A program made the translations under genes and the position numbers. Under the pieces are notes generated by a model. The model did not search any database. It had not been told where the DNA came from and was given only the letters and a program-made list of their open reading frames with translations. Below are positions 766-40,738 of a stretch of 42,961 nt of DNA, piece after piece. The DNA is from Parcubacteria group bacterium CG1_02_40_25. Lineage in GTDB: Bacteria; Patescibacteriota; Minisyncoccia; Portnoybacterales; CG1-02-40-25. Where the stretch lies: assembly GCA_001872305.1 (NCBI GenBank), contig MNWF01000023.1:1-42961 (forward strand). The letters run 5' to 3'. Within the stretch, counting starts at the first letter, position 1; every line of letters begins with the position of its first letter.

Positions 766-845
766 TTGGTTGTTAGGTTAACGGGTTAGCGAGTTGGCGA
801 GTTTTCTAACGAGTTAACGAGTTAACTCGTTAACTCGTTAACCCT
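766..845. repeat. Short-period hairpin type A (8-nt units, GTTAACGA-like)
   Basis: Direct units ggttaacg/ggttagcg/agttggcg, then a perfect 34-nt palindrome at 807-840 (taacgagttaacgagttaactcgttaactcgtta). Ends 2 nt before the pilD ATG. Confidence 0.85.
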
Positions 846-846
846 A

Positions 847-1719
847 ATGTTAGTTTTGTTATTTTTAATTTTTTTATTTGGTTTAATTATTGGCAGTTTT
901 CTTAACGTCGTTATTTTTCGTCTAGGCACTAAAAAATCTGCGCTTAAGGGGCGCTCCTTTTGTCCGCATTGCAAACATACTTTGGCTTGGTATGATTTAA
1001 TCCCGGTTTTAAGTTTTGTTTTTTTAAAAGGCCAGTGCCGTTATTGCGCCAAAAAAATCAGCTGGCAATATCCGTTGGTAGAAATAGCAACCGGATTGTT
1101 GTTTTTGCAAACTTTTGTCTTCGTTAATTTTGTTCGTCATGCTGAATTTATTTCAGCATCCAGTGTCGTGGATTTCGGCTCGGCGACCGAAATGACAACG
1201 CTGATTATTCAATGTGGCCTGTTGTTGGCTGTTGGCAGTTTGTTGATAATCATTTTCGTCTACGATTTAAAACATTATTTAATCCCTGATAAAATTATTT
1301 TTCCAGCCATAGCGATTGCGTTTCTATATCGGATTAGTCTACAGTCTACGGTCTACGGTCTACGGCCAAGCGTAGGTGCTAAGCTGTTAACGCTAACAAC
1401 ATTTTATCCGTTGTTCGCCGCTTTTGGCGCCGCCACCTTTTTTCTGCTATTAGTTTTGATCACCCGCGGTAAAGGTATGGGTATTGGCGATATCAAATTA
1501 GCGTTTTTAATGGGGCTCCTTTTATCTTGGCCGCAAATTACCACCGCCTTATTTATTGCTTTTTTATCTGGCGGCTTGATTGGTTTAGCGTTGATCTTGA
1601 CTCGTAAAAAGAAATTAAAAAGTATGGTGCCCTTTGGCCCTTTTCTGGCCAGTGGCACAATTATCGCGCTTTTTTGGGGAGAAAAAATCATAAACTGGTA
1701 TTGGAAAATACTACTTTAA
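847..1719 (+). CDS. pilD: Prepilin peptidase (A24 aspartic peptidase, PilD-like), carrying two repeat-derived in-frame inserts
   Basis: CPHC...CRYC zinc-type motif, WQYPLVE, GMGIGDIKL aspartyl motif, multiple TM helices. Inserts at 1136-1200 and 1337-1365. Confidence 0.85.
   Translation: MLVLLFLIFLFGLIIGSFLNVVIFRLGTKKSALKGRSFCPHCKHTLAWYDLIPVLSFVFLKGQCRYCAKKISWQYPLVEIATGLLFLQTFVFVNFVRHAEFISASSVVDFGSATEMTTLIIQCGLLLAVGSLLIIIFVYDLKHYLIPDKIIFPAIAIAFLYRISLQSTVYGLRPSVGAKLLTLTTFYPLFAAFGAATFFLLLVLITRGKGMGIGDIKLAFLMGLLLSWPQITTALFIAFLSGGLIGLALILTRKKKLKSMVPFGPFLASGTIIALFWGEKIINWYWKILL
1136..1200. repeat. TGTCAT-element fragment (alpha type) inside the pilD CDS
   Basis: cgtcatgctgaatttatttcagcatccagtg matches the 5' part of the elements at 34342 and 35255. 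Ends in gaaatgacaacg. Translated as RHAEFISASSVVDFGSATEMTT. Confidence 0.7.
1337..1365. repeat. Type B heptamer array (GTCTACA/GTCTACG x4) inside the pilD CDS
   Basis: gtctacagtctacggtctacggtctacgg, translated as LQSTVYGLR. Confidence 0.8.
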
Positions 1720-1726
1720 AATAATT

Positions 1727-1846
1727 TTGTCATTCCGGGTGTCGACCTGGAATCCACGGCATTCCGTCATTCTGAACGTAGTGAAGAATCTTTGGGTCTG
1801 TTATCTAAAACAACCGAGATTCTTCGGCCGCGGCCTCAGAATGACA
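1727..1846. repeat. Composite TGTCAT element (gamma plus delta modules)
   Basis: ttgtcattccgg..ggaatccacgg, then gtcattctgaacgtagtgaagaatc...gattcttc...cagaatgaca. Starts 8 nt after the pilD stop. Confidence 0.8.
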
Positions 1847-1853
1847 GCTATCA

Positions 1854-2378
1854 ATGGAAGTGCAAAATCAAAAAAAGAATGGTTTTACCATCTGGGAGCT
1901 TTTGGTCGTTATGGCGATTATCGGGATTGTCTCGGCCATTGTTTTAGCGCAAAATCAATATTTTAATTCGCGCCGCCAATTGCAAAGAGCGGTGCAAGAG
2001 TTATCAGTTAATATTCGTTGGGCCCAAGGCATGGCCCTGGAAACGCAATTAGCCGGAGGCGTTTTGCCTGCTGGCTATGGAATTTATGTTAAAGATGATA
2101 GCCATTATTTAATTTTTTATAACCTATCATCCGCGGTAAAGACCTATGTCGCGGCCACCAGTCAAACTTTGAAAGAATTTACTTTGCCTTCAGGCATTCC
2201 CCTGATCGGCGGAGTCGGCCAAAATGCTTTTTTTCTAAAACCCAATCCTGATTGTTATATTAACAACAATCCACCGAGCGGTTTCGAAGACAATCTCGAT
2301 ATTATTTTACGGGATAATAAAACAATGACCACGAAAACAATTCGGATTAACGATGGCTGTTTGGTCAAGATTCTATAA
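1854..2378 (+). CDS. Minor pilin / pseudopilin with prepilin-type N-terminus
   Basis: NGFTIWELLVVMAIIGIVSAIVL prepilin motif. Located in the pilin cluster. Confidence 0.7.
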   Translation: MEVQNQKKNGFTIWELLVVMAIIGIVSAIVLAQNQYFNSRRQLQRAVQELSVNIRWAQGMALETQLAGGVLPAGYGIYVKDDSHYLIFYNLSSAVKTYVAATSQTLKEFTLPSGIPLIGGVGQNAFFLKPNPDCYINNNPPSGFEDNLDIILRDNKTMTTKTIRINDGCLVKIL

Positions 2379-2401
2379 TTGCGATAATTATAATAATTAA
2401 C

Positions 2402-2516
2402 CTAATTATTCTAAGAAAACCCTAAGCCCCAATGATCAATTTCTAAATTAATTTTGATAAGTAATAAAATTTGGTCATTGGGATTTTGGTCATTGGTCAT
2501 CATTTAGAATAATTAG
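2402..2516. repeat. Short-period hairpin (7-nt units GGTCATT-like) between pseudopilin genes
   Basis: Outer 13-nt perfect inverted repeat ctaattattctaa (2402-2414) / ttagaataattag (2504-2516). Inner ccccaatgatcaa versus the ggtcatt gggattt tggtcat tggtcat array. Confidence 0.7.
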
Positions 2517-2533
2517 AAATTTTTCTTGGTTTT

Positions 2534-3163: not shown

Positions 3164-3178
3164 TTAGGTGTTCGTGGA

Positions 3179-3275
3179 GTCGTCATGCTGAATACATGTT
3201 GCGGACAGTACCTTCGGTTTATTTCAACATCCACGTCGTTAATACTGGACCCTGAAATTAGTTCAGGATGACAAC
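3179..3275. repeat. TGTCAT element, alpha type (inverted orientation)
   Basis: The reverse complement aligns along its length with 34342-34447 (ttgtcat.ctgaa...tccagt...aaccgaaggtactg...catgtattcag.atgacg). Confidence 0.8.
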
Positions 3276-3298
3276 GAGAGACAATAATTTTTTTACCA

Positions 3299-3850: not shown

Positions 3851-3859
3851 TCAAAATAA

Positions 3860-3923
3860 TTGTCATTCCGGCCATTGAGCCGGAAGCCACGGTGTGGATG
3901 CCGAAATGAGTTCAGCACGACAG
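3860..3923. repeat. TGTCAT element, gamma type
   Basis: ttgtcattccggcc....gccggaagccacggtgtggatgccgaaatgagttcagc. A near copy lies at 4377-4460. Confidence 0.75.
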
Positions 3924-3941
3924 TAGCATCGTTCTATAATT

Positions 3942-4331: not shown

Positions 4332-4376
4332 TGTTAATTGGTTTCAGTCATAAGAGTGTAGATGGGTCTTCGTAAT

Positions 4377-4460
4377 TTGTCATTCCGGCCGCCGGGCCGG
4401 AATCCACGGTGTGGATGCCGAAACTAGTTCAGCGCCCTAACGGGTATCTTCGACATGACA
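4377..4460. repeat. TGTCAT element, gamma type with an extra 3' module
   Basis: ttgtcattccggccgccgggccggaatccacggtgtggatgccgaaactagttcagcgccctaacgggtatcttcgacatgacaa. The 3' module recurs inverted at 38731-38771 and partly at 21049-21064. Confidence 0.8.
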
Positions 4461-4474
4461 ATGTTGAGTGTAAG

Positions 4475-4508
4475 CCAGTTTCCCAGTTCCAAAACTGGAT
4501 TTTTTTAT
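4475..4508 (+). terminator. Rho-independent terminator closing the pilin gene cluster
   Basis: ccagtt (4475-4480 or 4483-4488) / aactgg (4493-4498) followed by a T-rich run (4500-4506). Confidence 0.7.
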
Positions 4509-4532
4509 TATCAAGAGCTATAATAGAGAATC

Positions 4533-4602
4533 GGTTGTTTGGTTGCGGGTTATGAGTTGCGAGTTACGACGAATTTAACCTGTACCTCGTAACTGAAAAA
4601 CT
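4533..4602. repeat. Short-period hairpin type A (7-nt spacing here) directly upstream of the ligA ATG
   Basis: gttgcgg gttatga gttgcga gttacga left array; cctcgtaactgaaaaact right arm. Confidence 0.75.
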
Positions 4603-6693
4603 ATGGTTAAGCAACAAGTCCAACAACGTATTTTGGTATTGCGAAAAGCGATTAATCACCATCGTTATCTTTATCATGTTTTAGACAAGCAGGAAATTGA
4701 TGATGCCGCTTTTGATTCTTTAAAGCACGAACTTTGGCAATTGGAACAGCAATTTCCTGATTTAACGACGCTGGATTCACCTACTCAAAGAGTTGGTGGC
4801 GAACCATTAGATAAATTTATTAAAGTTCAACACCAAACGCCGATGTTTTCTTTAGAAGATGTTTTTTCTTTTGAAGAATTGGTTGACTGGGAAAAGCGGA
4901 TTAAAAAAATGGTGCTACCCCCTAATCGGTCCCTCCCCCTCGTGAAGGGGGCGGGTTGGGGAGGGGGACAGTTAGATTATTTCGTGGAATTAAAAATAGA
5001 TGGTTTTGCGGTTGCCTTGATTTATGAAAAAGGAATTTTACAAACAGGTGCCACCAGAGGCAATGGTAAAGTTGGTGAAGATGTAACCCAAAATTTAAAA
5101 ACCATTGAATCAATTCCCTTGCAATTACGTCGTCCGTCAGAAAAAGAATTAGTAGGCGCGGGGTTGTCGCAAGTCATATCCTTAGCAAAAATTTTTAATA
5201 GCCGTTTTGAAGTGCGTGGTGAAGTGGTAATGATTAAAAAAATTTTTGAACAAATTAATGCTAAGCGCCGTCAAAAAAATCAAGCGCTTTATGCTAATCC
5301 GCGAAATACCGCGGCTGGCTCCATTAGGCAGTTAAATCCTAAAATTGCCGCGTCGCGTCATTTGGAGTTTTTGTCTTATGATATTGTTTCTGGCGTTGGT
5401 CAAGAATTACATAGCCAGGAGCATTTATTATTACCATTTTTAGGGTTCAAAGTTGATAAACATTTTGAAAAATGTTCGGATTTAGAAAACGCGCGTCTAT
5501 TTCATCAAAAAATTAATAAAATTCGTGATGGCTTGCCATATCAAATTGACGGTTTGGTAGTATCAGTTGATGATAATGAGATTTTTGTTAAATTGGGCGT
5601 AGCCGGTAAAGCGCCCCGAGGCGCCATTGCTTATAAATTTCCGGGCAAGCAAGCAACCACGATAGTAGAAAAAATTATTTTGAGCATCGGCCGTACTGGC
5701 GCGTTAACGCCAGTAGCGATTTTGAAATCAGTCAAAGTTGGTGGCACGATGATATCTCGGGCAACGCTTCATAATGTCGACGAGATTAAACGATTAGATG
5801 TGCGGTCCGGCGACACGGTGGTTATTCAACGCGCTGGAGACGTCATCCCAGATGTTGTCTCGGTGATTAAAGAATTAAGACCTAAAAATACTACGGAATT
5901 TAAGATGCCGGCGCGTTGCCCGGTTTGCAATTCGCCAGTTGTTCGCGCTAAAGGCGAAGTGATCTATCGTTGTGGCAATTTAAAATGTGGAGCGATTCTT
6001 AAAGAACAATTTTATCATTTTGTTTCGCGCCACGCCTTTGATATTGTTGGTTTGGGCCCAAAGATTATTGATCAATTAATGGATAGTGGTTTAATTATTG
6101 ATGTAGCTGATATTTTTAAATTAACCGAGGGCGATTTAGTGTCCTTAGAACGTTTCGCCGCCAAATCAGCTAAAAATTTAGTTTTAGCTATTAATCGTAG
6201 CAAGCAGATTGCCTTGAGCCGGTTCATTTATGCTCTGGGCATTCGCCATGTGGGTGAAGAAACGGCCACGGATTTAGCTGTTCGATTTGGTTCTTTGTCT
6301 GCCTTACAACGTACCACGCTTGATAATTTGCGGTTAGTTCGTGATATTGGCGAAGTTGTGGCTAAAAGTATCGTTGACTATTTTAGCAATAAGCGTAATT
6401 TAAATTTAATTGATAAATTATTAGCCGCGGGAGTTAAGATTAAAAGTGAGCCCAAAAAAATCGGTCAGAGATTAGCCGATCAGTCATTTGTGTTTACTGG
6501 TGAATTAGTTAAAATGTCGCGGGACCAGGCCAAAAATAAAGTTCGCGCTTTAGGTGGCGATATTTCAGAATCAGTTAGCCGGCAAGCTGATTTTGTGGTA
6601 GCGGGGCTAAATCCGGGGACCAAATATCAGAAGGCTAAAAAACTTGGCGTAAAAATAATTGACGAAAAGGAATTTTTAAACATGATTTTCTAA
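4603..6693 (+). CDS. ligA: NAD-dependent DNA ligase LigA with a repeat-derived insert just upstream of the KxDG motif
   Basis: ELKIDG adenylation motif, ATRGNG, four-Cys zinc finger CPVCNS...CGNLKC, HhH region, C-terminal BRCT (FVFTGEL). Confidence 0.95.
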   Translation: MVKQQVQQRILVLRKAINHHRYLYHVLDKQEIDDAAFDSLKHELWQLEQQFPDLTTLDSPTQRVGGEPLDKFIKVQHQTPMFSLEDVFSFEELVDWEKRIKKMVLPPNRSLPLVKGAGWGGGQLDYFVELKIDGFAVALIYEKGILQTGATRGNGKVGEDVTQNLKTIESIPLQLRRPSEKELVGAGLSQVISLAKIFNSRFEVRGEVVMIKKIFEQINAKRRQKNQALYANPRNTAAGSIRQLNPKIAASRHLEFLSYDIVSGVGQELHSQEHLLLPFLGFKVDKHFEKCSDLENARLFHQKINKIRDGLPYQIDGLVVSVDDNEIFVKLGVAGKAPRGAIAYKFPGKQATTIVEKIILSIGRTGALTPVAILKSVKVGGTMISRATLHNVDEIKRLDVRSGDTVVIQRAGDVIPDVVSVIKELRPKNTTEFKMPARCPVCNSPVVRAKGEVIYRCGNLKCGAILKEQFYHFVSRHAFDIVGLGPKIIDQLMDSGLIIDVADIFKLTEGDLVSLERFAAKSAKNLVLAINRSKQIALSRFIYALGIRHVGEETATDLAVRFGSLSALQRTTLDNLRLVRDIGEVVAKSIVDYFSNKRNLNLIDKLLAAGVKIKSEPKKIGQRLADQSFVFTGELVKMSRDQAKNKVRALGGDISESVSRQADFVVAGLNPGTKYQKAKKLGVKIIDEKEFLNMIF
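4918..4970. repeat. G/C-rich nested palindrome inside the ligA CDS
   Basis: tccctccccctcgtgaagggggcgggttggggaggggga, with ccccc/ggggg and ccctcccc/ggggaggg pairings. Translated as PPNRSLPLVKGAGWGGGQ. Confidence 0.75.
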
Positions 6694-6748
6694 TTGTCAT
6701 TTTGAACGCAGTGAAGAACCTTATTGTCAGGGTGTTTTAAGATGACAA
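6694..6748. repeat. TGTCAT element, delta type (short)
   Basis: ttgtcattttgaacgcagtgaagaacc....aagatgacaa. Begins at the first base after the ligA stop codon. Confidence 0.7.
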
Positions 6749-6778
6749 TAAGGCAATAGTGTGTTAAACTTTTAATCT

Positions 6779-7078: not shown

Positions 7079-7080
7079 TG

Positions 7081-7170
7081 AATCGGTTATTCGGTTAACG
7101 GGTTATTGTGTTAACGGGTTGTTTACTGCAAACTCGTTAACTCGTTAACCCGCTAACTGATTAACTGAAT
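7081..7170. repeat. Short-period hairpin type A between gatC and gatA
   Basis: Left arm ggttattc ggttaacg ggttattg tgttaacg ggtt. Right arm aactcgttaactcgttaacccgctaactgattaactgaa. Confidence 0.85.
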
Positions 7171-7177
7171 TTATGTT

Positions 7178-8650: not shown

Positions 8651-8720
8651 TCGTTATTTGGTTAGCAGTTAGTCGCAAAAACCTGTTAACCCGTTAATCT
8701 GTTAACTAATTAACTGAATA
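8651..8720. repeat. Short-period hairpin type A after gatA
   Basis: tcgttatttggttagcagttagtcg / aacctgttaacccgttaatctgttaactaattaactgaa. The right arm nearly matches 13186-13215. Confidence 0.75.
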
Positions 8721-11005: not shown

Positions 11006-11070
11006 GCGGCTTACAGTCTACAGCTTACGGACTACGGCTTACGCTAACCTTAGACTTTAGACCGTAGACA
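11006..11070. repeat. Short-period hairpin type B (7-nt units) between pheS and pheT
   Basis: Left arm cttacag tctacag cttacgg actacgg cttacgc. Right arm ttagact ttagacc gtagaca. Confidence 0.85.
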
Positions 11071-11084
11071 TTTGTTTTTTCATC

Positions 11085-13130
11085 ATGCTTTTTTCTTTCA
11101 ATTGGCTTAAACAATATATTGATTTAACAAATATTTCAGCTCAAAAAGTAGGAGAGCTTTTAACGTTGCACAGTTTTGAGGTGGAATCAATTAAAAAGAA
11201 TGGTAGTGATTGGATTTTGGATATAGATGTTTTAGCAAATCGCGGCCATGACTGCCGTTGTCATTTGGCAATAGCTATGGAGTTGGCAGCGATTTTAGAA
11301 AAAAAACCAAAACAGCATTATCAAAATTTAACCAGTCAAAAAATAGCCTTGGCTCGGGGGAAGCTCAGGCCGATTAATATCAAAGTCCAAAGCAATAAGC
11401 AAGTGCCGCGTTACGCGGCCTTGGTGATTGAGAATATTAAGGTCGCCGCATCACCCAAGTGGCTGGTTGGTTATTTGGAGGCCATTGGCGGGCGATCTAT
11501 AAATAATGTAGTTGATTTGACGAATTACATAATGTGTGAAGTAGGTCAGCCCATGCACGCTTTTGATTATGATAAAATTTTAGCGTTATCCCCTGAACGT
11601 GAAATGATTGTTCGGCTTTCGCGACAGGGGGAAGGGGTAGTGACCTTAGATGGGGTTGAGCGCGAGTTGACGGCTGGTATTTTAGTTATTGAAGCAGGCA
11701 AAAAGCTCATTGATTTAGCCGGTATTATGGGCGGTCAGGTAAGCGAGATCGGGCCAGAAACTAAAAATATTATTTTACAAGCATCCTGTTTTGACGGGCC
11801 AACCATTAGGCGAGCCACGAAGTTGCTTGGTCATCGAACCGATGCCTCCGATATTTATCAGCACAATATTGATCCTAATCTAGCTGATTTGGCTTTGGGT
11901 CGGAGCATACATTTATTAAAAGAGATGACGGGGCCTGTTAGGGTGGTTCAAAAAATTGATTTTTATCCGGAGAAAAAAATAGCTAAGCAAATTAAATTAG
12001 ATTTAGCTCAAGCCAATAGCTTGTTGGGCGTTGAATTATCGCGAGACAAAATTATTCAGATTTTACAATCATTAGATTTTGTAGTGCAAAAAAGCAATTC
12101 TGGCGGAAAGTCCATTGTTGTTTTGGCGCCCACCAGACGTTTGGACGTGGTGATGCCCGAAGATTTAATTGAAGAAATTGGTCGTATTTATGGTTATAAA
12201 AAGATTCCAGCTAAAATGCCTTATATCAATTTAGCACTGCCAGAAATCAATCAACAGGCGGCGTATAAAAATCAGGTTAGGCGATCTTTAATTAATTGGG
12301 GTTTTAACGAAACTATTAATTATGTTTTTACTGATAAAAGTAGTTCTTTGGCTCTGCCATTACAAAATCCGATTGCCAAAGATAAAATTTGTTTAAGGAT
12401 GAATTTAATCCCGGGGCTGGCGCAAAATATTAAAAATAATTTAAAGTATTTTTCCGCGATCAGGCTGTTTGAAATTGGACGTATTTGGTGTCAGAATTTA
12501 AATCAGAATAAACAATTAATTATTCACGAAAAAGAAAGTTTAGCTGGTGTTTTACTGAGCTCGGACGGAAAAGAGCCATTTTTCTTATTGAAAGGTTTTG
12601 TAGAAAATTTAATTCAATCTTTTGGTATCAGTGATATTTGGTTTGATGACGCTTTGGCTAAAGATGAGTCGGCTTTTTTAGAGAATGATTTTAATGTCCG
12701 GGCTCTGGCTCAAATCAAGATCGGCGATCGTTTGTTGGGTTATTGTGGCGAATTGCGCGATTTTGCGGGATCTATCGCTGTGGGTTTTGAGCTAGATTTA
12801 GATGTTTTGACACAAGAAACAATTTCTGAAAGAATGTATGAACCATTAGCAAAATATCCATCATCGGTGCGTGACTTAGCGATTTTAGCCCCTCCAGAAA
12901 CTAAAGTTGGGCAGGTCTTAGCGGAGATTAACGAGTCAAATGTCCTTGAATTAGTGGATGTTGACCTATTTGATTTATATCAAGGCGAAGAACTTGATGA
13001 TAAAAAGAATTTAGCATTCCATCTAATTTTTCAATCATCTAAAAAAACCTTAACTGATCGCGAAGTAGATATTTTTATGGCCAAGATTATTAAAAATTTA
13101 CAAGAAAAAGGGTGGGAAATTAGAAGATGA
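11085..13130 (+). CDS. pheT: Phenylalanine-tRNA ligase beta subunit (short form, 681 aa)
   Basis: MLFSFNWLKQYIDL N-terminus, B3/4 and B5 regions, C-terminal anticodon-binding-like FDLYQGEEL. Follows pheS. Confidence 0.9.
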   Translation: MLFSFNWLKQYIDLTNISAQKVGELLTLHSFEVESIKKNGSDWILDIDVLANRGHDCRCHLAIAMELAAILEKKPKQHYQNLTSQKIALARGKLRPINIKVQSNKQVPRYAALVIENIKVAASPKWLVGYLEAIGGRSINNVVDLTNYIMCEVGQPMHAFDYDKILALSPEREMIVRLSRQGEGVVTLDGVERELTAGILVIEAGKKLIDLAGIMGGQVSEIGPETKNIILQASCFDGPTIRRATKLLGHRTDASDIYQHNIDPNLADLALGRSIHLLKEMTGPVRVVQKIDFYPEKKIAKQIKLDLAQANSLLGVELSRDKIIQILQSLDFVVQKSNSGGKSIVVLAPTRRLDVVMPEDLIEEIGRIYGYKKIPAKMPYINLALPEINQQAAYKNQVRRSLINWGFNETINYVFTDKSSSLALPLQNPIAKDKICLRMNLIPGLAQNIKNNLKYFSAIRLFEIGRIWCQNLNQNKQLIIHEKESLAGVLLSSDGKEPFFLLKGFVENLIQSFGISDIWFDDALAKDESAFLENDFNVRALAQIKIGDRLLGYCGELRDFAGSIAVGFELDLDVLTQETISERMYEPLAKYPSSVRDLAILAPPETKVGQVLAEINESNVLELVDVDLFDLYQGEELDDKKNLAFHLIFQSSKKTLTDREVDIFMAKIIKNLQEKGWEIRR

Positions 13131-13133: not shown

Positions 13134-13220
13134 TTGTTAACTTTGTTGCTCGGTTAATGCGTTAACGAGTTGTGAGTTAGTTAGAAAACCTGTTAACCCG
13201 TTAACTAATTAACCTTTTAA
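13134..13220. repeat. Short-period hairpin type A between pheT and gyrB
   Basis: Left arm cggttaatgcgttaacgagttgtgagttagtt. Right arm aacctgttaacccgttaactaattaacc. Confidence 0.8.
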
Positions 13221-13229
13221 CGCTATATT

Positions 13230-15209
13230 ATGTCTGAACAAATAAATAAAAACAATAATAACAGCTATACTGCCAGCGATATCTATGTTTTAGAGGGTCT
13301 TGAGCCCGTGCGTAAACGCCCTGGCATGTATATTGGTTCCACTGGCGTTGAGGGCTTGCATCATTTAATTTGGGAAGTAGTGGACAATTCTTTAGATGAA
13401 GCAATTGGCGGTTATTGTGATGAAATTGTGGTAACATTTTCGTCTAATAATCGGATGAGCGTTCAGGATAACGGTCGGGGTATCCCAGTTGATATCCATA
13501 AACAAACCGGAAAATCCGCCTTAGAAACCGTATTAACAACTTTGCACGCGGGCGCTAAGTTTGGGGGGCAGTCATATAAAATTGCTGGTGGTTTGCATGG
13601 CGTGGGCGTGTCAGTCGTTTGCGCGCTTTCGCGTTGGCTCAAAGCAGAGGTACATCGTGATGGCGATATTTATACTCAAGAATATGAATTCGGTCGAGTA
13701 GTTAGCCCAGTAAAAAAAGTTGGTTCTACGGATCGCACTGGGACTACTATTACCTTTGAGCCAGATCCAGAAATTTTTAAAGATGCGAAATTTTCTTGGC
13801 GTCGTATTTTGGATCATTTAAGGCAGCAGTCATATCTAACGAGAGGCGTTAAAATCGTGATTCGTGATGAAAGAAAACAGTCCACGGCAAAAGACGCCGT
13901 GTCCGCGTCGAACGATGGGAATAAGTTTCCGCCTATTTTTAATTATTCTTATACTTTTTACTTTGAAGGCGGCTTGCCTTCCTTTGTGAAATATTTAAAT
14001 CAAGGCGAAAAAATTAAGCACGAAAACATTTTTCACGTGAGCGAGGAAAAAGAAGATATCGCGGTAGAGGTCGCTGTGCAATATACACAAGACATTCAGG
14101 GCAAGGAAGTAAGCTTCGCGAATAATATTCATACGGGCGAAGGCGGGATGCACCTAACGGGATTCCGAACGGCCTTAACGCGAACTCTTAATGACTACGC
14201 GCGTAAAAATAGTTATCTTAAAGAAAATGAGGAAAATCTATCGGGGGATGACGTGCGCGAAGGCCTGACCGCGGTGATTTCTGTAAAAATTAAAGAACCC
14301 CAATTTGAAGGTCAAACTAAAGCAAAGTTGGGCAATCCCGAAGCTCGGGTCGCGGTGGACGCGGTCATGGCCGAAGCATTCGCCAATTATTTAGAGCGTT
14401 TTCCGCAAGATGCCAGGGCCATTATGGAAAAGTGTTTACTGGCAGCTAAAGCAAGGCGGGCGGCTAAAGCAGCTCGAGAAACAGTGATCCGCAAGGGCGT
14501 TTTAGAAGGGTTGGCTTTGCCAGGCAAGCTGGCAGATTGTTCTTCGCGTCGGCCCGAGGAATCTGAAATTTTTATTGTTGAGGGGGATTCGGCTGGTGGC
14601 TCTACTAAACAAGCGCGTGATCGGCGTTTTCAAGCGGTGCTGCCAATTCGTGGCAAAATTTTAAATGTAGAAAAAGCCCGTTTAAATCGAGCGTTGGCGT
14701 CTAAAGAAATTCGGGCATTGGTTATTGCCATGGGCACTGCTATTGCTGAAGAATTTAATATTGCCAAGCTTCGTTATCATCGGGTGATTATTATGACTGA
14801 CGCTGACGTTGACGGCGCCCATATTCGGACATTGCTTTTAACTTTATTTTTTCGCCACTTTGAGCCGTTGATTAAGGTCGGCCATATTTATATTGCGCAA
14901 CCACCACTTTATCGCATCCAGATCGGCAGTCAAGTAGAGTATATGTATGATGATATAGCTAAAGACAAGAAGCTTGCTGGCCTAACGCAGAAATTTAATC
15001 TTCAGCGATATAAGGGTTTGGGCGAAATGAATCCCAATCAACTTTGGGAAACCACGATGGATCCCGCTAAGCGCATTCTTAAGCAGGTGACAGTTGATGA
15101 CGCCGAAGCCGCGGATCACATTTTTGATGTTTTGATGGGGTCGGAAGTTGCTCCGCGCAAAAAATTTATTCAAACGCATGCCAAGACGGTGCAGAATCTC
15201 GACGTATAG
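13230..15209 (+). CDS. gyrB: DNA gyrase subunit B
   Basis: GLEPVRKRPGMYIGST, GLHHLIWEVVDNSLDE, GGLHGVG, EGDSAGGS, PIRGKILNVE, DADVDGAHI. Confidence 0.97.
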   Translation: MSEQINKNNNNSYTASDIYVLEGLEPVRKRPGMYIGSTGVEGLHHLIWEVVDNSLDEAIGGYCDEIVVTFSSNNRMSVQDNGRGIPVDIHKQTGKSALETVLTTLHAGAKFGGQSYKIAGGLHGVGVSVVCALSRWLKAEVHRDGDIYTQEYEFGRVVSPVKKVGSTDRTGTTITFEPDPEIFKDAKFSWRRILDHLRQQSYLTRGVKIVIRDERKQSTAKDAVSASNDGNKFPPIFNYSYTFYFEGGLPSFVKYLNQGEKIKHENIFHVSEEKEDIAVEVAVQYTQDIQGKEVSFANNIHTGEGGMHLTGFRTALTRTLNDYARKNSYLKENEENLSGDDVREGLTAVISVKIKEPQFEGQTKAKLGNPEARVAVDAVMAEAFANYLERFPQDARAIMEKCLLAAKARRAAKAARETVIRKGVLEGLALPGKLADCSSRRPEESEIFIVEGDSAGGSTKQARDRRFQAVLPIRGKILNVEKARLNRALASKEIRALVIAMGTAIAEEFNIAKLRYHRVIIMTDADVDGAHIRTLLLTLFFRHFEPLIKVGHIYIAQPPLYRIQIGSQVEYMYDDIAKDKKLAGLTQKFNLQRYKGLGEMNPNQLWETTMDPAKRILKQVTVDDAEAADHIFDVLMGSEVAPRKKFIQTHAKTVQNLDV

Positions 15210-15211
15210 TG

Positions 15212-15274
15212 GCGTCTACGGTCTACGGCTTACGGCTTACGATGGCCGTTAGCGGTAGACCGTAGACCGTAGAC
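15212..15274. repeat. Short-period hairpin type B after gyrB
   Basis: Left arm gtctacg gtctacg gcttacg gcttacg. Right arm cggtaga ccgtaga ccgtagac. Confidence 0.9.
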
Positions 15275-15290
15275 TAATTACAGTTTCCCC

Positions 15291-15362: not shown

Positions 15363-15575
15363 ATGGCGATTTCTCAAAAAGTTATCGGGCTTTTTAAAAA
15401 AATTCCTCAATTCTTAAAAGAAGTTAAGATTGAATTGAAAAAAGTTACTTGGCTAAGCCGTCAGGATGTTTGGCGTTACACTTTGATTGTGGTGTTTTTT
15501 TCTTTGGCAGTAGCCGCTTTTTTGGGGGGCCTTGATATTTTATTTGGGTTTTTAATTAAGAAATTCTTGCTGTAG
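15363..15575 (+). CDS. secE: Preprotein translocase subunit SecE
   Basis: 70 aa with FLKEVKIELKKVTWLSRQDV plus a single C-terminal TM. Conserved position before nusG. Confidence 0.8.
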   Translation: MAISQKVIGLFKKIPQFLKEVKIELKKVTWLSRQDVWRYTLIVVFFSLAVAAFLGGLDILFGFLIKKFLL

Positions 15576-15672
15576 TTTACGGACTACAGTCTACGGTCCG
15601 CGGCACGAAGTTCGTTATTTTTCGGCTGTAGCCCGTAGACCGTTGACCGTTGACTGTAGACTGTTGACCGTT
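15576..15672. repeat. Short-period hairpin type B between secE and nusG
   Basis: Left arm tttacggactacagtctacggtccg. Right arm ctgtagcccgtagaccgttgaccgttgactgtagactgttgaccgt. Confidence 0.85.
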
Positions 15673-16225: not shown

Positions 16226-16228
16226 ATA

Positions 16229-16266
16229 TGTCGACCGTCTACCGTCTACGGTCTACAGTCTACTGC
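16229..16266. repeat. Type B left arm, immediately after the nusG stop
   Basis: tgtcgaccgtctaccgtctacggtctacagtctactgc. Confidence 0.8.
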
Positions 16267-16288
16267 TAAATATTTTAGATTTGAGAGA

Positions 16289-16621: not shown

Positions 16622-16636
16622 TATTTTTTTTATCGT

Positions 16637-16669
16637 GGGCTGTAGCCTGTAGACTGTCGACTGTAGACA
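16637..16669. repeat. Type B right arm, immediately before rplK
   Basis: gggctgtagcctgtagactgtcgactgtagaca is the complementary unit type to 16229-16266. The four-helix-bundle gene lies between the two arms. Confidence 0.8.
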
Positions 16670-17097: not shown

Positions 17098-17102
17098 TAT
17101 GG

Positions 17103-29094: not shown

Positions 29095-29112
29095 TGTCGT
29101 TTTTTTGCGTCG

Positions 29113-29142
29113 TTGTCATCCTCGGTCTCGACCCGAGGATCC
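29113..29142. repeat. Short TGTCAT palindrome upstream of dnaE
   Basis: ttgtcatcctcggtctcgacccgaggatcc. An inverted near copy is nested at 35289-35318. Confidence 0.65.
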
Positions 29143-29151
29143 AATTCTAAA

Positions 29152-33116: not shown

Positions 33117-33392
33117 ATGAAGTATTTTGACTGGGACCCCCAGAAAAATAAAGAATTAAAAGAAAAACGAGGCGTAAGTTTTGAAGAAGCAATCTTAGCC
33201 ATACAGAGCGGTAATCTTTTAAATACTCGTAAAAATCCAAATCAAGAAAAGTATCCCAATCAAAAACTATTTATCATTAATATTAATAATTATGTTTTTG
33301 TGATTTTGTTTGGTGAAGACAATGAAAAGTATTTTTTAAAGACAATAATCCCAAGCCGTAAAGAAACTAAAAAATATCTTTCTAAAAAATAA
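33117..33392 (+). CDS. brnT: BrnT-family (DUF497) toxin
   Basis: FDWDPQKNKELKEKRGVSFEEA N-terminal signature. Small size and toxin-first order, with an antitoxin-like gene 10 nt downstream. Confidence 0.75.
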   Translation: MKYFDWDPQKNKELKEKRGVSFEEAILAIQSGNLLNTRKNPNQEKYPNQKLFIININNYVFVILFGEDNEKYFLKTIIPSRKETKKYLSKK

Positions 33393-33402
33393 AATAAAAA
33401 AT

Positions 33403-33684
33403 ATGAAAAACTATAAGTTAAATAAATATGAGCAAGAAATTTTAGATGCTTTTGAGGCGGGCAAACTAAAGTCCATAAAAAATGAGGAGAAGAAGAATAA
33501 AGAATATATGCTGGCGGCTAAGGATTCTTTGAATAAGACAAAGAATATCAACATTAGGATTTCAAACGGCGACTTGCAAAAAATTAAAGCCAAAGCAGTT
33601 GAAAAGGGCTTGCCCTATCAAACCTTGATTGGCTCTCTTTTGCATCAACATTTCGCGGAAGCAAGCAAAGAGCTGACCAAGTAA
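33403..33684 (+). CDS. brnA: BrnA-like antitoxin (RHH/CopG-type C-terminus)
   Basis: EQEILDAFEAGKLKS, then NINIRISNGDLQKIKAKAVEKGLPYQTLIGSLLHQH, an RHH-like segment. Confidence 0.7.
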   Translation: MKNYKLNKYEQEILDAFEAGKLKSIKNEEKKNKEYMLAAKDSLNKTKNINIRISNGDLQKIKAKAVEKGLPYQTLIGSLLHQHFAEASKELTK

Positions 33685-34324: not shown

Positions 34325-34341
34325 AAGCGATTATAAAATAG

Positions 34342-34447
34342 TTGTCATGCTGAATTTATTTCAGCATCCAGTGTATAAAACATAGCTCGTCTACTGGATC
34401 CTGAAATGAACCGAAGGTACTGCTCGCGGCATGTATTCAGGATGACG
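34342..34447. repeat. TGTCAT element, alpha type (reference copy)
   Basis: ttgtcatgctgaatttatttcagcatccagtg...ctggatcctgaaatgaaccgaaggtactgctcgcggcatgtattcaggatgacg. Confidence 0.85.
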
Positions 34448-34488
34448 AAAAAGTTACTTGGGGAGTATTGATAGTTGAGGAGGGATTG

Positions 34489-35232: not shown

Positions 35233-35254
35233 AATGTGGGATGATTAAATGTAG

Positions 35255-35379
35255 TTGTCATACTGAATTAGTTTCAGCATCTACGGCGAGATCCTCGGGT
35301 CAAGCCCGAGGATGACAAATACGAACTGGATCCTGAAATAAACCGAAGGTACTGCCCGTGGCATGTATTCAGGATGACG
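35255..35379. repeat. Alpha-type TGTCAT element carrying a nested short palindrome
   Basis: Collinear with 34342-34447, except that gatcctcgggtcaagcccgaggatgacaa (35289-35318) replaces the centre. Confidence 0.85.
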
Positions 35380-35434
35380 TTGTATTTTTGATGGTTTGAC
35401 TGCGCTCACCACTTTTAGTTTTTGATTTAATCTT

Positions 35435-35806: not shown

Positions 35807-36493
35807 ATGCAAGCATATCAATTAATTCGTTCACGTCGTCGGACCATTGCCTTGGAAATCAGCCGTGAGGGCTGTCTAATTGTGCGTGCGCCAATGCGTG
35901 CTAGTCGATTTTATCTTGATGATTTAATTAAACGTAAGCAAGCGTGGATTAATCAGCATTTAAATAAAATTATTCAGCGACAACAATTCTTGCCAGCGAA
36001 ACAATTTGTTTCTGGTGAGGGTTTTTTGTATTTAGGCCAAACTTATCCTTTGAGATTAATTCAGCATTTAGTAGGGAACAAAAATTTTTGTTCCCTACAA
36101 TTCACGGGCAATAAATTTTTGTTAGTTGAATCAGCCCGCGCCAGTGCCCGCGGCATTTGGCAACGTTGGTATAAAACGCAGGCGCAAAAAATTATCAGTC
36201 AACGAGTTCGCGACTTGGCAAAGCAGTTTGATTTTCAATATGCTAAAATTAAAATTACTCAAGCTAAAAAACGCTGGGGATCGTGCAGTCCAAAAGGTAA
36301 TCTCAACTTTTCTTGGCGATTAATAATGGCACCATTAGACGTGATTGACTATGTGGTGGTGCACGAACTGGCGCATTTAAAAATAAAAAATCATCAGCGA
36401 GTATTTTGGCAAAGTGTGGAGCAAATTTTGCCAGATTATCGTTCGTGCCGCGTCTGGCTCAAACAAAACGAGCATCTTTTAGACGGGTTTTAA
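35807..36493 (+). CDS. YgjP-like (DUF45 / M48-related) zinc metallopeptidase
   Basis: KKRWGSCSPKGNLNFSWRLIMAPLDVIDYVVVHELAHL (HExxH). Contains the 28-bp palindrome at 36071-36098 in frame. Confidence 0.8.
   Translation: MQAYQLIRSRRRTIALEISREGCLIVRAPMRASRFYLDDLIKRKQAWINQHLNKIIQRQQFLPAKQFVSGEGFLYLGQTYPLRLIQHLVGNKNFCSLQFTGNKFLLVESARASARGIWQRWYKTQAQKIISQRVRDLAKQFDFQYAKIKITQAKKRWGSCSPKGNLNFSWRLIMAPLDVIDYVVVHELAHLKIKNHQRVFWQSVEQILPDYRSCRVWLKQNEHLLDGF
36071..36098. repeat. 28-bp perfect palindrome inside the ygjP-like CDS
   Basis: gtagggaacaaaaatttttgttccctac, identical to 38793-38820. Translated as VGNKNFCSL. Confidence 0.9.
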
Positions 36494-36511
36494 TCGAGGG
36501 TTTTTTAATCG

Positions 36512-36622
36512 TTGTCATTGCGAGGATAGCCTGCCTTGAGCGAAGTCGAAGGGTGGCAATCTCGAATTCTGAGATAGCTTGGGTTTTGAGGTTGCCACGG
36601 CACTTCGTGCCGCACAATGACA
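36512..36622. repeat. TGTCAT element, beta type
   Basis: ttgtcattgcgaggatagcc...gggtggcaatctcgaattc...gttgccacggcacttcgtgccgcacaatgaca. Terminal inverted repeats. Confidence 0.8.
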
Positions 36623-36637
36623 TCAAAAAGCGTTCCG

Positions 36638-36646
36638 TGCTATAAT
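36638..36646 (+). promoter_or_regulatory. Extended -10 element (TGcTATAAT) upstream of the 651-aa ORF
   Basis: gtgctataat at 36637-36646, the same 10-mer as upstream of rnhB (32247-32256). Confidence 0.45.
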
Positions 36647-36669
36647 ATCTGAATAAAAGTTAAAATGTT

Positions 36670-38625: not shown

Positions 38626-38730
38626 ATTAGCCTAAAACCGCCATATGTGTGTGGACATTACCCCCCTCTCTTGCCAAAAGCAAATAAATCTGCTATCTTT
38701 ATTATCTTGAGCTGGAATATTTTCCTTTAT

Positions 38731-38843
38731 GTCGTTATGTCGAAGATGCCCGTTAGGGCACTGAACTAGTTCTAGCATCCAGTCCATAAAACGTAGGGAA
38801 CAAAAATTTTTGTTCCCTACTAGATCCTGAAATGAATTCAGGC
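38731..38843. repeat. Composite element: inverted gamma-tail module plus alpha core carrying the 28-bp palindrome
   Basis: gtcgttatgtcgaagatgcccgttagggcactgaactagtt is the reverse complement of the module at 4420-4458. It is followed by the alpha core catccagt..ataaaac [38793-38820 palindrome] tagatcctgaaatgaattcagg. Confidence 0.8.
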
Positions 38844-38880
38844 CGTGTAGGCTCCAAAAGAGCTCACAGGATCTAAGGAG

Positions 38881-39198: not shown

Positions 39199-39227
39199 TG
39201 GATGTTTTTGCGTGAATAATTTTTAGT

Positions 39228-39340
39228 GTCGTCCTGAGGGCGAAGCCCGAAGGATCTCACGCATTGTCATTCTGAATGAAGCGCAGCGTAGTGAAGAATC
39301 TCACGCCAGAGATCCTTCGGCTTGATGCCTCAGGATGACG
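39228..39340. repeat. Nested composite: delta module inserted in the loop of another palindromic element
   Basis: Outer arms gtcgtcctgagggcgaagcccgaaggatctc / gagatccttcggcttgatgcctcaggatgacg. Inner attgtcattctgaatgaagcgcagcgtagtgaagaatctc. Confidence 0.8.
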
Positions 39341-39391
39341 CAAGGCGTCAGATTCTTCGTCTGCGACTCAGGATAACGAGTATAAAAAATC

Positions 39392-39829
39392 ATGTCATCA
39401 CGTCACTTAGCGCGATCAGTTGCTTTGCAAATTCTTTACGAATGGGATTTTAAGAATCGCGACCCAGAAAAATTGGTTGAGATTATTGAACGTAATGTTC
39501 AAGAATTTGGCGTGGCTGCGGGGTTAGAAGACGATCAATTCATTCGCACATTAGTTAGCCGTGTATTGGAAAACTTAATAAAATTAGATGAATTGATCAC
39601 GCAATACGCGCCTGATTGGCCGTTAGATCAAATTACGATAGTTGATCGTAATATTCTCCGATTAGGGCTTTATGAATTGTTATTTGGTAATCACGATGAA
39701 GTGCCCCCAAAAGTGGCGATTAACGAAGCGATTGAGTTAGCCAAATCATTTGGCGGTGAAAGTTCTGGTAAATTTGTTAATGGGGTCTTGGGAGCGGTTT
39801 ATCGGGAAATAACTCAAAAACAAGAATAA
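39392..39829 (+). CDS. nusB: Transcription antitermination factor NusB
   Basis: [30 protein letters not shown].....FVNGVL. Confidence 0.9.
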
Positions 39830-39830
39830 T

Positions 39831-39907
39831 AGGAATTAAGAATTAAGAATAAAGAATAAAGTTGCAAGATAATAGGCGCTTAATTCTTTATTCTTGATTC
39901 TCTATCC
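39831..39907. repeat. Short-period hairpin (7-nt units AATTAAG/AATAAAG) between nusB and rnc
   Basis: Left arm aattaag aattaag aataaag aataaag. Right arm cttaatt ctttatt cttgatt ct. Confidence 0.75.
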
Positions 39908-39916
39908 TTTTTTCGT

Positions 39917-40606
39917 ATGGTGAAAGATTTTTCTCTATTAGAAAAGAAGTTGGGCGTTAAGTTTAATAATCAAGATTTACTAAGGCAGGCGTTAGTCCAC
40001 CGTTCTTATTTAAATGAAAACCCAGATTGTGGTTTGGAGCATAACGAAAGAATGGAGTTTTTGGGGGACGCGGTGTTGGAGTTAGTGACCACAGAATATT
40101 TATTTAAAAATTATCCCAATCCCGAAGGCGAATTAACCGGCTATCGTTCGGCCTTAGTCAATAGTCATATGCTTTCTGAAATCGCCGTAGAACTTGGGAT
40201 TAATGATTTTTTGCTGTTGTCCCGTGGTGAAGCTCGGGATACGGGTAAGGCGCGAGAATGTATTTTGGCGAACGCTATGGAAGCAATTATTGGCGCGATG
40301 TATTTAGACGCGGAGTATAAGGTATCCGCGGATTTTATCACGCGCCATGTTTTAAAAGAACTGCCGCGCGTGCTTGAAGACAAGCTGTATGTTGATGCTA
40401 AAAGCGCTTTTCAAGAACAAGCGCAAGATCGGGTGGGCGTCACGCCGGTTTATGAGGTTTTAAAAGAGTGGGGGCCTGACCACGCTAAGCAATTTGAGAT
40501 CGGCGTATTTTTAGACAAAGAAATGGTGGCAACTGGTCAAGGTCTATCCAAGCAAGAAGCCCAACAAGAAGCAGCTCGTCGAGCGTTAGAAGTTAAAAAA
40601 TGGTAA
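39917..40606 (+). CDS. rnc: Ribonuclease III
   Basis: NERMEFLGDAVLELV catalytic signature and a C-terminal dsRBD (AKSAFQE...GQGLSKQEAQQEAARRAL). Confidence 0.95.
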   Translation: MVKDFSLLEKKLGVKFNNQDLLRQALVHRSYLNENPDCGLEHNERMEFLGDAVLELVTTEYLFKNYPNPEGELTGYRSALVNSHMLSEIAVELGINDFLLLSRGEARDTGKARECILANAMEAIIGAMYLDAEYKVSADFITRHVLKELPRVLEDKLYVDAKSAFQEQAQDRVGVTPVYEVLKEWGPDHAKQFEIGVFLDKEMVATGQGLSKQEAQQEAARRALEVKKW

Positions 40607-40611
40607 TAGAT

Positions 40612-40738
40612 AAAAATTTCAAATTACAAATATCAAATCACAAATAAATCTCAAATTCGAAGTCTCAAGACGTTTAGTCGTATTTGGAAATTGATTATTG
40701 GAATTTATTTGTTATTTGAGATTTGAGTTTTGGAATTT
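40612..40738. repeat. Short-period hairpin (7-nt units CAAAT-type) between rnc and rpsP
   Basis: Left arm tcaaatt acaaata tcaaatc acaaata aatctca aatt. Right arm atttatttgttatttgagatttgagttttggaattt. Confidence 0.7.

Follow-up and report, generated by a model that had tools for sequence, protein, structure and literature searches.

Described hairpin and heptamer repeat elements

Among the closest described counterparts of the elements considered here are the intervening sequences (IVSs) of 23S rRNA genes and the heptamer repeats of cyanobacteria. In the IVS of Coxiella burnetii, an S23p (PF05635) open reading frame (ORF) is bordered by inverted repeats forming a 28-bp stem, which is cut mid-way by both Coxiella and E. 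coli RNase III; tandem GACAGAT heptamers, two or three according to strain, make up the 5' part, and the 5' cleavage site lies at the first of them (PMC4990558). A related design was found in a stretch of 42,961 nt (contig MNWF01000023.1, positions 1 to 42,961; hereafter the window) from a groundwater member of the Patescibacteria, or candidate phyla radiation (CPR), assigned to Candidatus Portnoybacteria. The window is a block of densely packed housekeeping genes in which approximately 11 gene junctions hold hairpins with arms made of tandem 7- or 8-nt units, the array of one arm complementing that of the other, and one of these hairpins, between nusG and rplK (16229-16668), encloses a PF05635 gene. 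This gene is the key to what the hairpin elements are: as in the 23S rRNA IVSs of C. burnetii and Leptospira, a four-helix-bundle gene lies in the loop of an inverted-repeat stem. The cassette differs from these IVSs in that it sits in a protein-coding operon at nusG-rplK and not in helix 25 or 45 of a 23S rRNA gene, most copies in the window lack an ORF, and the units are 7 or 8 nt long and fall into several sequence families; cleavage has been shown for Coxiella, whereas it is predicted here.

The canonical short tandemly repeated repetitive (STRR) units of heterocystous cyanobacteria are CCCCAGT, TTGGTCA and CAACAGT. In the window, only positions 2471-2500 resemble one of these (TTGGTCA), and the host belongs to Candidatus Portnoybacteria. 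STRR heptamers of filamentous cyanobacteria can form hairpins between the co-transcribed genes hupS and hupL, a situation described as "not unusual" (PMC2670836). The window hairpins share with STRRs the tandem 7-nt intergenic units and the position between co-transcribed genes, and STRR-bearing cyanobacteria also carry many heptamer-flanked PF05635 genes. However, the window derives from another phylum and has other units, some of 8 nt, the mirror arrangement is the rule, and whole spacers are filled. The 5'-untranslated region of Haemophilus influenzae hmw1A contains a hairpin that RNase III processes; one of its arms is an (ATCTTTC)n array, whose repeat number slips (PMC12721329). Unlike the window hairpins, this is a single phase-variation locus of an adhesin, its other arm is G-rich rather than a mirror array, and it belongs to no dispersed family.

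The REP/BIME elements of enterobacteria and pseudomonads are transcribed and affect mRNA 3'-end stability. Like the window hairpins, they are dispersed imperfect palindromes that are intergenic within operons (REPIN, PMC3116915). They differ in having no tandem units, in being mobilised by a REP-associated tyrosine transposase (RAYT) and in enclosing no PF05635 gene; no RAYT (IS200/IS605-like tyrosine transposase) was found among the window proteins scanned against Pfam. Rickettsia palindromic elements (RPEs) insert in frame into essential protein genes and add a peptide loop. A copy within gatB in the window is likewise an in-frame palindromic insert adding a peptide loop, whereas RPEs are 100-150 nt long, non-periodic and confined to Rickettsia, and no sequence relation to it is expected. 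Direct TAACTGA repeats lie a few nucleotides upstream of start codons lacking Shine-Dalgarno sites in marine Beggiatoaceae, cyanobacteria and Bacteroidetes (MacGregor 2015, PMC4679880). The last 3'-arm units of the 8-nt (type A) hairpins resemble them, reading TAACTGAT TAACTGAA at 7151-7166 and TTAACTGAA at 8706-8714, but TAACTGA repeats are direct, have a fixed unit and no complementary arm, and the window spacing is 8 nt.

An earlier reading of the window, made from the sequence alone (the sequence-only reading), had named no described class of element with this design. That view does not hold, as STRR hairpins (PMC2670836) and the GACAGAT-built stem of the Coxiella IVS precede it. Within the open-access literature, the design is already known from the IVS, STRR and hmw1 precedents, whereas no open-access paper was found on periodic hairpins in CPR genomes or on a general link between PF05635 and heptamers, which is noted there for the single Coxiella locus only.

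Periodic hairpins at gene junctions

A strict detector was used that required at least three unit copies, at least 78% identity and, for a mirror pair, a complementary partner no more than 120 nt away. It identified 17 arrays and five mirror pairs in 5.7 kb of spacers, compared with 0.57 +/- 0.74 arrays and no mirror pairs in 300 dinucleotide shuffles, and it returned no mirror pairs in approximately 290 kb of unrelated genomes. The excess over shuffled intergenic sequence expected by the sequence-only reading is therefore present, as is the expected autocorrelation at lags 7 and 8: in 6.3 kb of intergenic DNA, base autocorrelation is 0.307 at lag 7 and 0.286 at lag 8 against approximately 0.265 at other lags, with no peak at lag 7 or 8 in the coding DNA of the window. 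Tandem Repeats Finder assigned a period of 8 to the type A hairpins and of 7 to types B, C and D. When folding energies were compared with 200 shuffles, nine of the 12 hairpins gave z-scores of -3.3 or lower (range -3.3 to -9.7), so the predicted excess in stability stands for these nine; two others are marginal (8651, z -2.5; 13134, z -2.0), and the hairpin at 11006 folds no better than its shuffles (z -0.6), with decayed arms and a preserved periodicity. The arrays are not assembly artefacts, given that identical array sequences occur in ten samples assembled independently by the ENA, JGI and NCBI pipelines. Stems start 0-14 nt past a stop codon and end 3-23 nt ahead of the next start codon, and those of the ORF-less copies are 20-40 bp long.

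All the copies listed by the sequence-only reading were recovered at the positions it gave, and the features below lie on the plus strand unless stated otherwise. The type A hairpin at 776-843, built of GGTTAACG / CGTTAACY units, ends 3 nt before the start codon of the prepilin peptidase gene pilD (847); the region 764-846 folds at -39.8 kcal/mol (z -7.4) and holds the reported perfect 34-nt palindrome (807-840), which consists of two 17-nt arms that are 100% complementary with no spacer. A second type A hairpin occupies the whole gatC-gatA spacer (7079-7173), beginning at the first base after the gatC stop codon and ending 4 nt before the gatA ATG, with a fold of -45.1 kcal/mol for 7079-7177 (z -9.7). 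Type A hairpins are also found between pheT and gyrB (13144-13222, z -2.0) and, in degenerate form, at 4531-4596 (z -3.3), ending 6 nt before the ligA start codon, and downstream of gatA at 8653-8714 (z -2.5), where the orthologue in a sister genome has 10 or 11 3' units. The long hairpin between two pilin genes (2402-2516, z -4.0) matches the proposed architecture in part: a hairpin is present, but only its 3' arm is tandem (TTGGTCA-like units, 2471-2500) and there is no mirror pair.

Type B hairpins have 7-nt units. The first of them begins 2 nt past the gyrB stop codon (15212-15270, GTCTACG/GCTTACG against CGTAGAC; 15210-15285 folds at -42.2 kcal/mol, z -6.8), and another lies between secE and nusG (15570-15659, z -3.8). 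The decayed copy between pheS and pheT (11006-11065) contains GCTTACG/GTCTACA and TTAGACC/GTAGAC units. The nusB-rnc spacer is occupied by a type C hairpin (39831-39908, AAGAATT/AAGAATA against TATTCTT, z -5.4), a unit type that recurs at the pheS-pheT junction of the sister genome, and a type D hairpin lies between rnc and rpsP (40609-40744, CAAATNN against NNATTTG, z -5.0).

Several further copies had been overlooked, most of them within genes. A type B hairpin lies in frame within gatB (19234-19345, z -4.4), and four GTCTACG units with a degenerate partner lie in frame in pilD (1337-1365). On the minus strand, a single type A array (sense strand AACTCGTT) is present in a miaB-like gene (22723-22749), and a 7.7-copy heptamer array (sense AAGCTCA) lies in frame in the 5' part of thrS (25385-25437). 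A cut 3' arm is located at the edge of the window (1-60). The thrS array is translated near the N-terminus of threonyl-tRNA synthetase (SKSSKLKAQSPKPQLKTQS) and has no clear complementary arm. Because the units contain GTYRAC or GTMKAC hexamers (GTNNAC cores), it was also considered whether the arrays are clustered restriction sites, but this idea was rejected, as the rest of the window shows no avoidance of the hexamers.

A PF05635 gene in the loop of a split hairpin

The pair of arms at 16229 and 16637, previously described only as a split copy, encloses a gene that had been overlooked. This 333-nt ORF (16289-16621) encodes a 23S rRNA intervening-sequence/four-helix-bundle protein, with matches to PF05635 (E 5e-34), TIGR02436 and PDB 2GSC (E 2e-18). 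The 5' arm (16229-16263) reads GTCGACC GTCTACC GTCTACG GTCTACA GTCTACT, and the 3' arm (16637-16668) reads GCTGTAG CCTGTAG ACTGTCG ACTGTAG AC and ends 6 nt before the rplK ATG. The arms are complementary, forming a stem of at least 20 bp, as in IVSs. It is the only cassette of the window; the other copies have no ORF. A known RNA family does not account for the hairpins, given that Rfam at gathering thresholds returned only three tRNAs from the whole window. Avd, which binds nucleic acids and partners the reverse transcriptase of diversity-generating retroelements, belongs to the PF05635 family, and the window protein shows a weak match to it.

Two near-identical strains of a syntenic sister species (L018 and L019; PheT 86% identical to that of the window) also carry cassettes at nusG-rplK. 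In L019, the arms GCAAACA GCTAACA GCATACA and their complement surround a gene 65% identical to that of the window, whereas in L018 an unrelated member of the PF05635 family is flanked by 8-nt units (AATTGTTT etc.) and their complement. Between these two strains, both the genes and the arms are unrelated (L018 15256-15745; L019 14946-15381), and divergence begins approximately 37 nt inside nusG, which shows that the cassette was swapped, probably by recombination. Upstream of the PF05635 ORF of the window, an ATG at 16228 (within 16226-16290) is out of frame with the ORF. As 7 is not a multiple of 3, the gain or loss of one heptamer shifts the frame, and as the population is polymorphic in this respect, translation of the PF05635 gene could be phase-variable. 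In L022, which belongs to an independent lineage, the array is in frame with the PF05635 gene and encodes the N-terminus of its product.

Repeat families, slippage and arm covariation

Type A copies at different junctions share a common order of variant units (GGTTAACG, GGTTAGCG, AGTTGGCG, AGTTAG) followed by a GAAAA loop. Over 28 of 28 nt, the 5' arm at 776 matches the non-orthologous gatC-gatA copy of the sister species, and it is closer to that copy than that copy is to its own orthologue. Type B copies align with one another and are 80-90% identical to the cassette arms. In addition, the cassette arms and the neighbouring solo hairpins use one unit family per genome, namely GTCTACN in the window and GCWAACA/GCATACA in L019. 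Type B is therefore the cassette's own repeat, and types A and B, with their shared order of variant units, each represent a dispersed family that has spread or been homogenised across loci. The hairpins thus fall into dispersed sequence families A, B, C and D, with the B units common to the cassette arms, and the alignments reveal short imperfect palindromes of conserved sequence, as in REP/REPIN elements. The proposal that the spacers share one architecture but not one sequence is accordingly true between types and untrue within A and within B, where copies are clearly homologous, and the related claim that no single dispersing sequence is involved fails within types for the same reason. A derivation of the ORF-less hairpins from the cassette by deletion could not be demonstrated, as similarity stops at the periodic arms.

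Comparisons of near-identical strains show slippage directly, since they are separated by single-unit indels. L018 and L019 differ by three single-nucleotide polymorphisms (SNPs) over approximately 15.2 kb outside the swapped cassette, and the sole indel there is one 8-nt unit, CCGTTAAC. Across 6.5 kb of the window and ten samples of its own species, there are 11 SNPs and one multi-base indel, the 7-nt unit GTCGACC of the cassette arm, with the extra unit present in the 5' arm of two of the ten samples. The slippage suggested by the sequence-only reading is thus observed in both comparisons. Over the longer distance to the sister species, 3' arms hold six and 11 copies of AACCCGTT, compared with two or three in the window.

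The sister species has a periodic hairpin at all six comparable junctions, though not the same hairpin. Three type A copies retain their unit in the sister with a different copy number. At gyrB-secE and secE-nusG, the unit GTCTACG of the window is GCATACA/GCTTACA in the sister, and the opposite arm is altered to match, which is the covariation between arms that the sequence-only reading had proposed to look for in orthologous spacers. At pheS-pheT, three genomes have three unit types: type B in the window, an AAGAATA type in the sister, where a G-rich palindrome is nested in the loop, and a CAAAAT type in L020. Within the population, the SNP at 15588 (A to G) converts an A.C mismatch of the stem to a G:C pair and shifts the fold from -40.6 to -46.8 kcal/mol.

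Relatives without hairpins and insertions in coding DNA

More distant relatives with approximately 80% NusG identity (L112-L115) comprise two further Portnoybacteria, one member of Azambacteria (L114) and another Patescibacteria contig, all with the gene order kept. L112, L113 and L115 lack periodic hairpins and have nusG-rplK spacers of only 3-8 nt, and the pheT-gyrB spacer of the Portnoybacteria contig L113 is 4 nt. None of the four relatives has a cassette or a mirror pair by the strict detector; L114 has a nusG-rplK spacer of 106 nt. In L114, an identical short 7-mer palindrome, CGAATTACGAATTCGTAATTCG, occurs at two junctions (1448-1469 and 17872-17893) and heptamer arrays are present in gatA and gatB, suggesting that similar elements are patchily present in other Patescibacteria.

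The hairpin within gatB encodes approximately 30 extra residues (QSTAHSLQST...RRLLTVDR), whereas the corresponding loop has 4-9 residues in the four relatives, all of which have a GatB shorter by 26-49 residues. The gatB copy is therefore an in-frame insertion into a conserved protein gene, of the kind known from Rickettsia. These comparisons indicate that the elements are gains of one lineage, with rapid turnover and the ability to enter coding DNA, and in this they behave like tolerated or selfish repeats.

Other in-frame palindromes were observed nearby. In ligA (4915-4980), a G+C-rich palindrome lies in frame and corresponds to a 15-residue LigA insert that is missing from the sister species. 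Conversely, pheT of L018 contains two G+C-rich in-frame palindromes (11020-11100 and 11320-11375) that encode PheT inserts of 26 and 18 residues not found in the window.

PF05635 genes and heptamer arrays in other genomes

A metagenome scan with the window protein identified 80 loci encoding relatives of 40-72% identity. Most have inverted tandem arrays of approximately 7 nt on either side of the gene, and the unit differs at almost every locus (for example GCGAATG/CCATTCG, GTCAGCT/AGCTGAC, CGTTGTT/CGAACAA and GGGCAGT/CTGCCCA). Autocorrelation of the upstream arm is highest at lag 7 in nearly every locus and at lag 8 in a few. A strict 7- or 8-nt array is present in 91 of 135 flanks but in only 81 of 1300 background windows of the same contigs (odds ratio 31, p 2e-61). 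Among plasmids from named organisms, those of cyanobacteria (Nostoc, Calothrix, Trichormus and others) are the main carriers of the gene, which is also present in Riemerella (Bacteroidota) and Azospirillum (Alphaproteobacteria). Inverted heptamer arms flank it in Nostoc punctiforme, Riemerella and Azospirillum, whereas Pseudanabaena has long direct arrays on both sides and the heptamers of Nostoc PCC 7120 are not complementary. In at least four phyla, PF05635 genes thus typically lie within heptamer arrays, most of which are inverted. Several of the metagenomic PF05635 contigs contain, at other sites, mirror hairpins without an ORF, and L022 contains three copies of one hairpin family that start 2-8 nt past stop codons. 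A fixed orientation of the G-rich arm with respect to the gene was considered and rejected: this arm comes first in 22-23 of 32 loci, a weak bias, and the window cassette has the opposite orientation.

Two of the plasmid loci have unusual surroundings. On plasmid pPg_01 of Pseudanabaena galeata, the four-helix-bundle gene (46268-46627) lies between cas6 and cas4 and is flanked by approximately 15 AAAGCTA units upstream and approximately 10 AAAGCCA units downstream, in direct and not inverted arrangement. On plasmid AZO_p2 of Azospirillum lipoferum 4B, a PF05635-like ORF (14416-14730) with inverted GGACAGA/TCTGTCC arms is located where the PLSDB table, which omits RNA genes, annotates no protein gene. 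Its unit resembles the GACAGAT of Coxiella, and the locus may represent the IVS of a 23S rRNA gene.

Arrays of three GTCTACN units were also found in 43 IMG/VR viral stretches (L130-L172) from G+C-rich hosts, so that a GTCNACN-type unit recurs in very distant genomes, and one of these stretches holds a mirror hairpin, (GTAGACG)4 ... (CGTCTAC)n (L139, 9815-9930). Phages were considered as a vector on these grounds, but the idea was rejected, as no PF05635 gene lies near the viral arrays.

Origin and function of the hairpins

On balance, the hairpins are probably lineage-specific, ORF-less palindromic elements of the intervening-sequence type, which are resized by slippage, tolerated in operon spacers and probably cut by RNase III. 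The full form of the element would carry a four-helix-bundle (PF05635) gene in its loop. Its arrays would lengthen and shorten by replication slippage, with the two arms kept complementary, and copies would settle where short spacers separate housekeeping genes that run in the same direction within an operon, and now and then in frame within genes. As such an insert is self-folding, the stop codon before it and the start codon after it would stay next to each other, and little harm would result. In the operon RNA, each copy would form a double-stranded stem of 20-40 bp, which the host RNase III would most likely recognise and cut, in the same manner as the homologous heptamer-repeat stem in Coxiella 23S rRNA. 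RNase III had already been put forward as a candidate by the sequence-only reading, which placed rnc at 39917; Pfam agrees with this assignment (39917-40606, plus strand), the gene is bordered by hairpins C and D, and its product is the most plausible partner, by analogy with the Coxiella stem (PMC4990558) and the hmw1 leader (PMC12721329), both of which are cut. The copies appear to have spread and been homogenised between loci, and they would be mainly neutral or selfish, not needed by the cell. The way in which the arms form is the most likely reason for the periodic geometry, which also lets complementary arrays still pair after either arm has gained or lost a unit. The earlier suggestion that this geometry serves protein binding with helical-repeat spacing is unlikely and found no support, because 7-8 nt is not a helical repeat.

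Several points weigh against an origin as tolerated, RNase III-cut elements. Cleavage by RNase III is argued by analogy, and the copy in gatB lies in an essential coding region, where efficient cutting would be harmful, so that cutting must spare some of the copies or be prevented by translation. The excess of G:U pairs on the sense strand could equally stem from a leading-strand C-to-T bias, given the positive GC skew of the window, and does not extend to the cassette arms. A hairpin has been kept at all six compared junctions in a sister species with PheT only 86% identical, which means that the hairpins could be useful and not merely tolerated. Furthermore, neither a transposase nor target-site duplications nor a conserved terminus could be found to account for the spread; in particular, no target-site duplications were seen by eye at gatB or pheT-gyrB.

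The retention of hairpins is one ground for the rival view that they are adaptive operon punctuation, serving to split polycistronic RNA through RNase III, to protect 3' ends as E. coli REPs do, or to couple translation. At pheS-pheT, the unit type was replaced and not lost, stems begin 0-14 nt past the stop codon here and 2-8 nt past it in the independent lineage L022, the SNP at 15588 restores a base pair, and transcript stability or translational coupling has been proposed for cyanobacterial STRR hairpins (PMC2670836). The ORF-less hairpins also have more G:U pairs than A.C mismatches on the sense strand (54 against 30, p 0.012). However, this asymmetry is modest, has a mutational explanation and is missing from the cassette arms (74 G:U against 87 A.C), and it was rejected as proof of selection at the RNA level. 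Close relatives manage without hairpins, with spacers of 3-8 nt at the same junctions, copies also lie within coding regions, where punctuation would be senseless, and some copies have decayed, such as that at 11006. Shine-Dalgarno sites precede none of nine genes after hairpins and seven of 33 others, a difference without significance (p 0.31), and they are few in any case, so the idea that the hairpins replace them was rejected. Punctuation is therefore considered rather unlikely. The position of hairpins between genes for subunits of one enzyme (gatC/gatA, pheS/pheT) is compatible with punctuation but shows that they cannot be full terminators, and at these sites there is no room for a new promoter. 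That they might be unusual intrinsic terminators without a U-tract is very improbable, even though they directly follow stop codons, T-runs come after two copies (11066-11080 and 39903-39913) and one L022 copy sits at a convergent junction. Intrinsic terminators have a short G+C-rich stem and a U-tract, whereas these stems are long and A+U-rich, and none of the periodic hairpins was among the 26 terminator-like sites called in a terminator scan (22 expected by chance), in agreement with the sequence-only reading that they are not classical terminators.

The strong and phylogenetically wide association between gene and heptamers allows another view, in which the arrays are binding sites of a pentameric PF05635 protein that regulates, protects or helps to propagate its own flanks and the ORF-less copies. 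The arms are three to five units long and the protein is homopentameric (PDB 2GSC; PMC4990558). The nucleic-acid-binding Avd belongs to the same family, although its match here is weak, and the contigs with a cassette (the window, L018/19, L022, L026 and L028) also hold nearby ORF-less hairpins whereas the cassette-free relatives do not. On the other hand, the proteins are conserved and the units vary widely, which would require co-evolution if binding were sequence-specific; the cassettes of L018 and L019 are unrelated, yet their ORF-less hairpins are identical; the viral contigs with GTCTACN arrays and a mirror hairpin have no PF05635 gene nearby; and the Coxiella protein is probably not even made (PMC4990558). 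Binding sites of this kind are thus doubtful, to about the same degree as operon punctuation. A purely local mutational by-product, with slippage on the spot followed by template switching that copies the array into its complement and with neither dispersal nor function, would suit the whole-unit indels between near-identical strains and the spacerless palindrome at 807-840, which fits template switching and not the needs of an RNA loop. Heptamers are also the commonest long repeat unit in many prokaryotes, as summarised from Mrazek 2007 in PMC4679880. A local origin is nevertheless improbable, as different junctions share the order of variant units and the loop motif, a copy can resemble a non-orthologous copy more closely than its orthologue, separate loci of one genome change their unit family together, and relatives with the same gene order have none.

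If the hairpins are indeed IVS-type elements, those at CPR junctions gain a concrete role as candidate RNase III substrates, and the intervening-sequence design is extended from rRNA into ordinary operons. Gene calling and strain typing in CPR genomes are affected by the whole-unit changes and by the in-frame copies in essential genes. The finding that most merits follow-up is the association of PF05635 with heptamers across phyla. The function of the PF05635/TIGR02436 proteins has been a puzzle since 1993, and STRRs have been enigmatic since 1990. If the association is general, it joins two puzzles, the role of the proteins and the commonness of heptamer repeats in some bacteria, and makes both approachable by comparative genomics and simple binding assays. 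A tentative extension is that PF05635 proteins and heptamer arrays (STRRs, long heptanucleotide repeats, TAACTGA and the present hairpins) are halves of one widespread system. It is conceivable, though not likely, that the gene normally lies inside an inverted pair of arrays and that the protein binds the stems, shields them from RNase III, presents them to it or helps to propagate them. By the same speculative argument, the ORF-less arrays of cyanobacteria, Bacteroidota, Beggiatoaceae and CPR might be satellites of a PF05635 protein.

Other features of the window

The first block of genes encodes the prepilin peptidase (pilD), pilins, ligA, gatC/gatA, three tRNAs and pheS/pheT (Pfam and Rfam), followed by gyrB, secE, nusG, rplK, tdk, cdd and gatB (Pfam). 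A block on the minus strand contains miaA, the miaB-like gene, thrS, dnaE and guaA, and the last block contains rnhB, a BrnT/BrnA pair, nusB, rnc and rpsP (both by Pfam). The NusG of the window is 100% identical to a protein that NCBI assigns to a Candidatus Portnoybacteria metagenome-assembled genome. Among species representatives, the best match of GyrB is a Parcubacteria genome (57%). The GC content is approximately 40%, and GC skew is positive across the whole window, suggesting that the plus strand is probably the leading strand.

A second, non-periodic palindromic family occupies at least 13 other spacers and is characterized by the motifs TTGTCATTCYGRA...GAAGAATC and ...TYCAGGATGAC. Its sites are located at 1720-1853, 3164-3298, 3851-3941, 4360-4480, 6694-6778, 17098-17250, 29095-29151, 34325-34467, 35250-35400, 36494-36669, 38730-38880, 39199-39391 and 41107-41260. 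With the periodic and non-periodic families taken together, most spacers longer than 80 nt are repeat DNA. A perfect 28-nt palindrome, GTAGGGAACAAAAATTTTTGTTCCCTAC, is present twice, once in a YgjP-like gene (36071-36098) and once in a spacer (38793-38820). Amid the housekeeping genes, positions 33117-33684 encode the pair of a BrnT-like toxin and a CopG/BrnA-like antitoxin.

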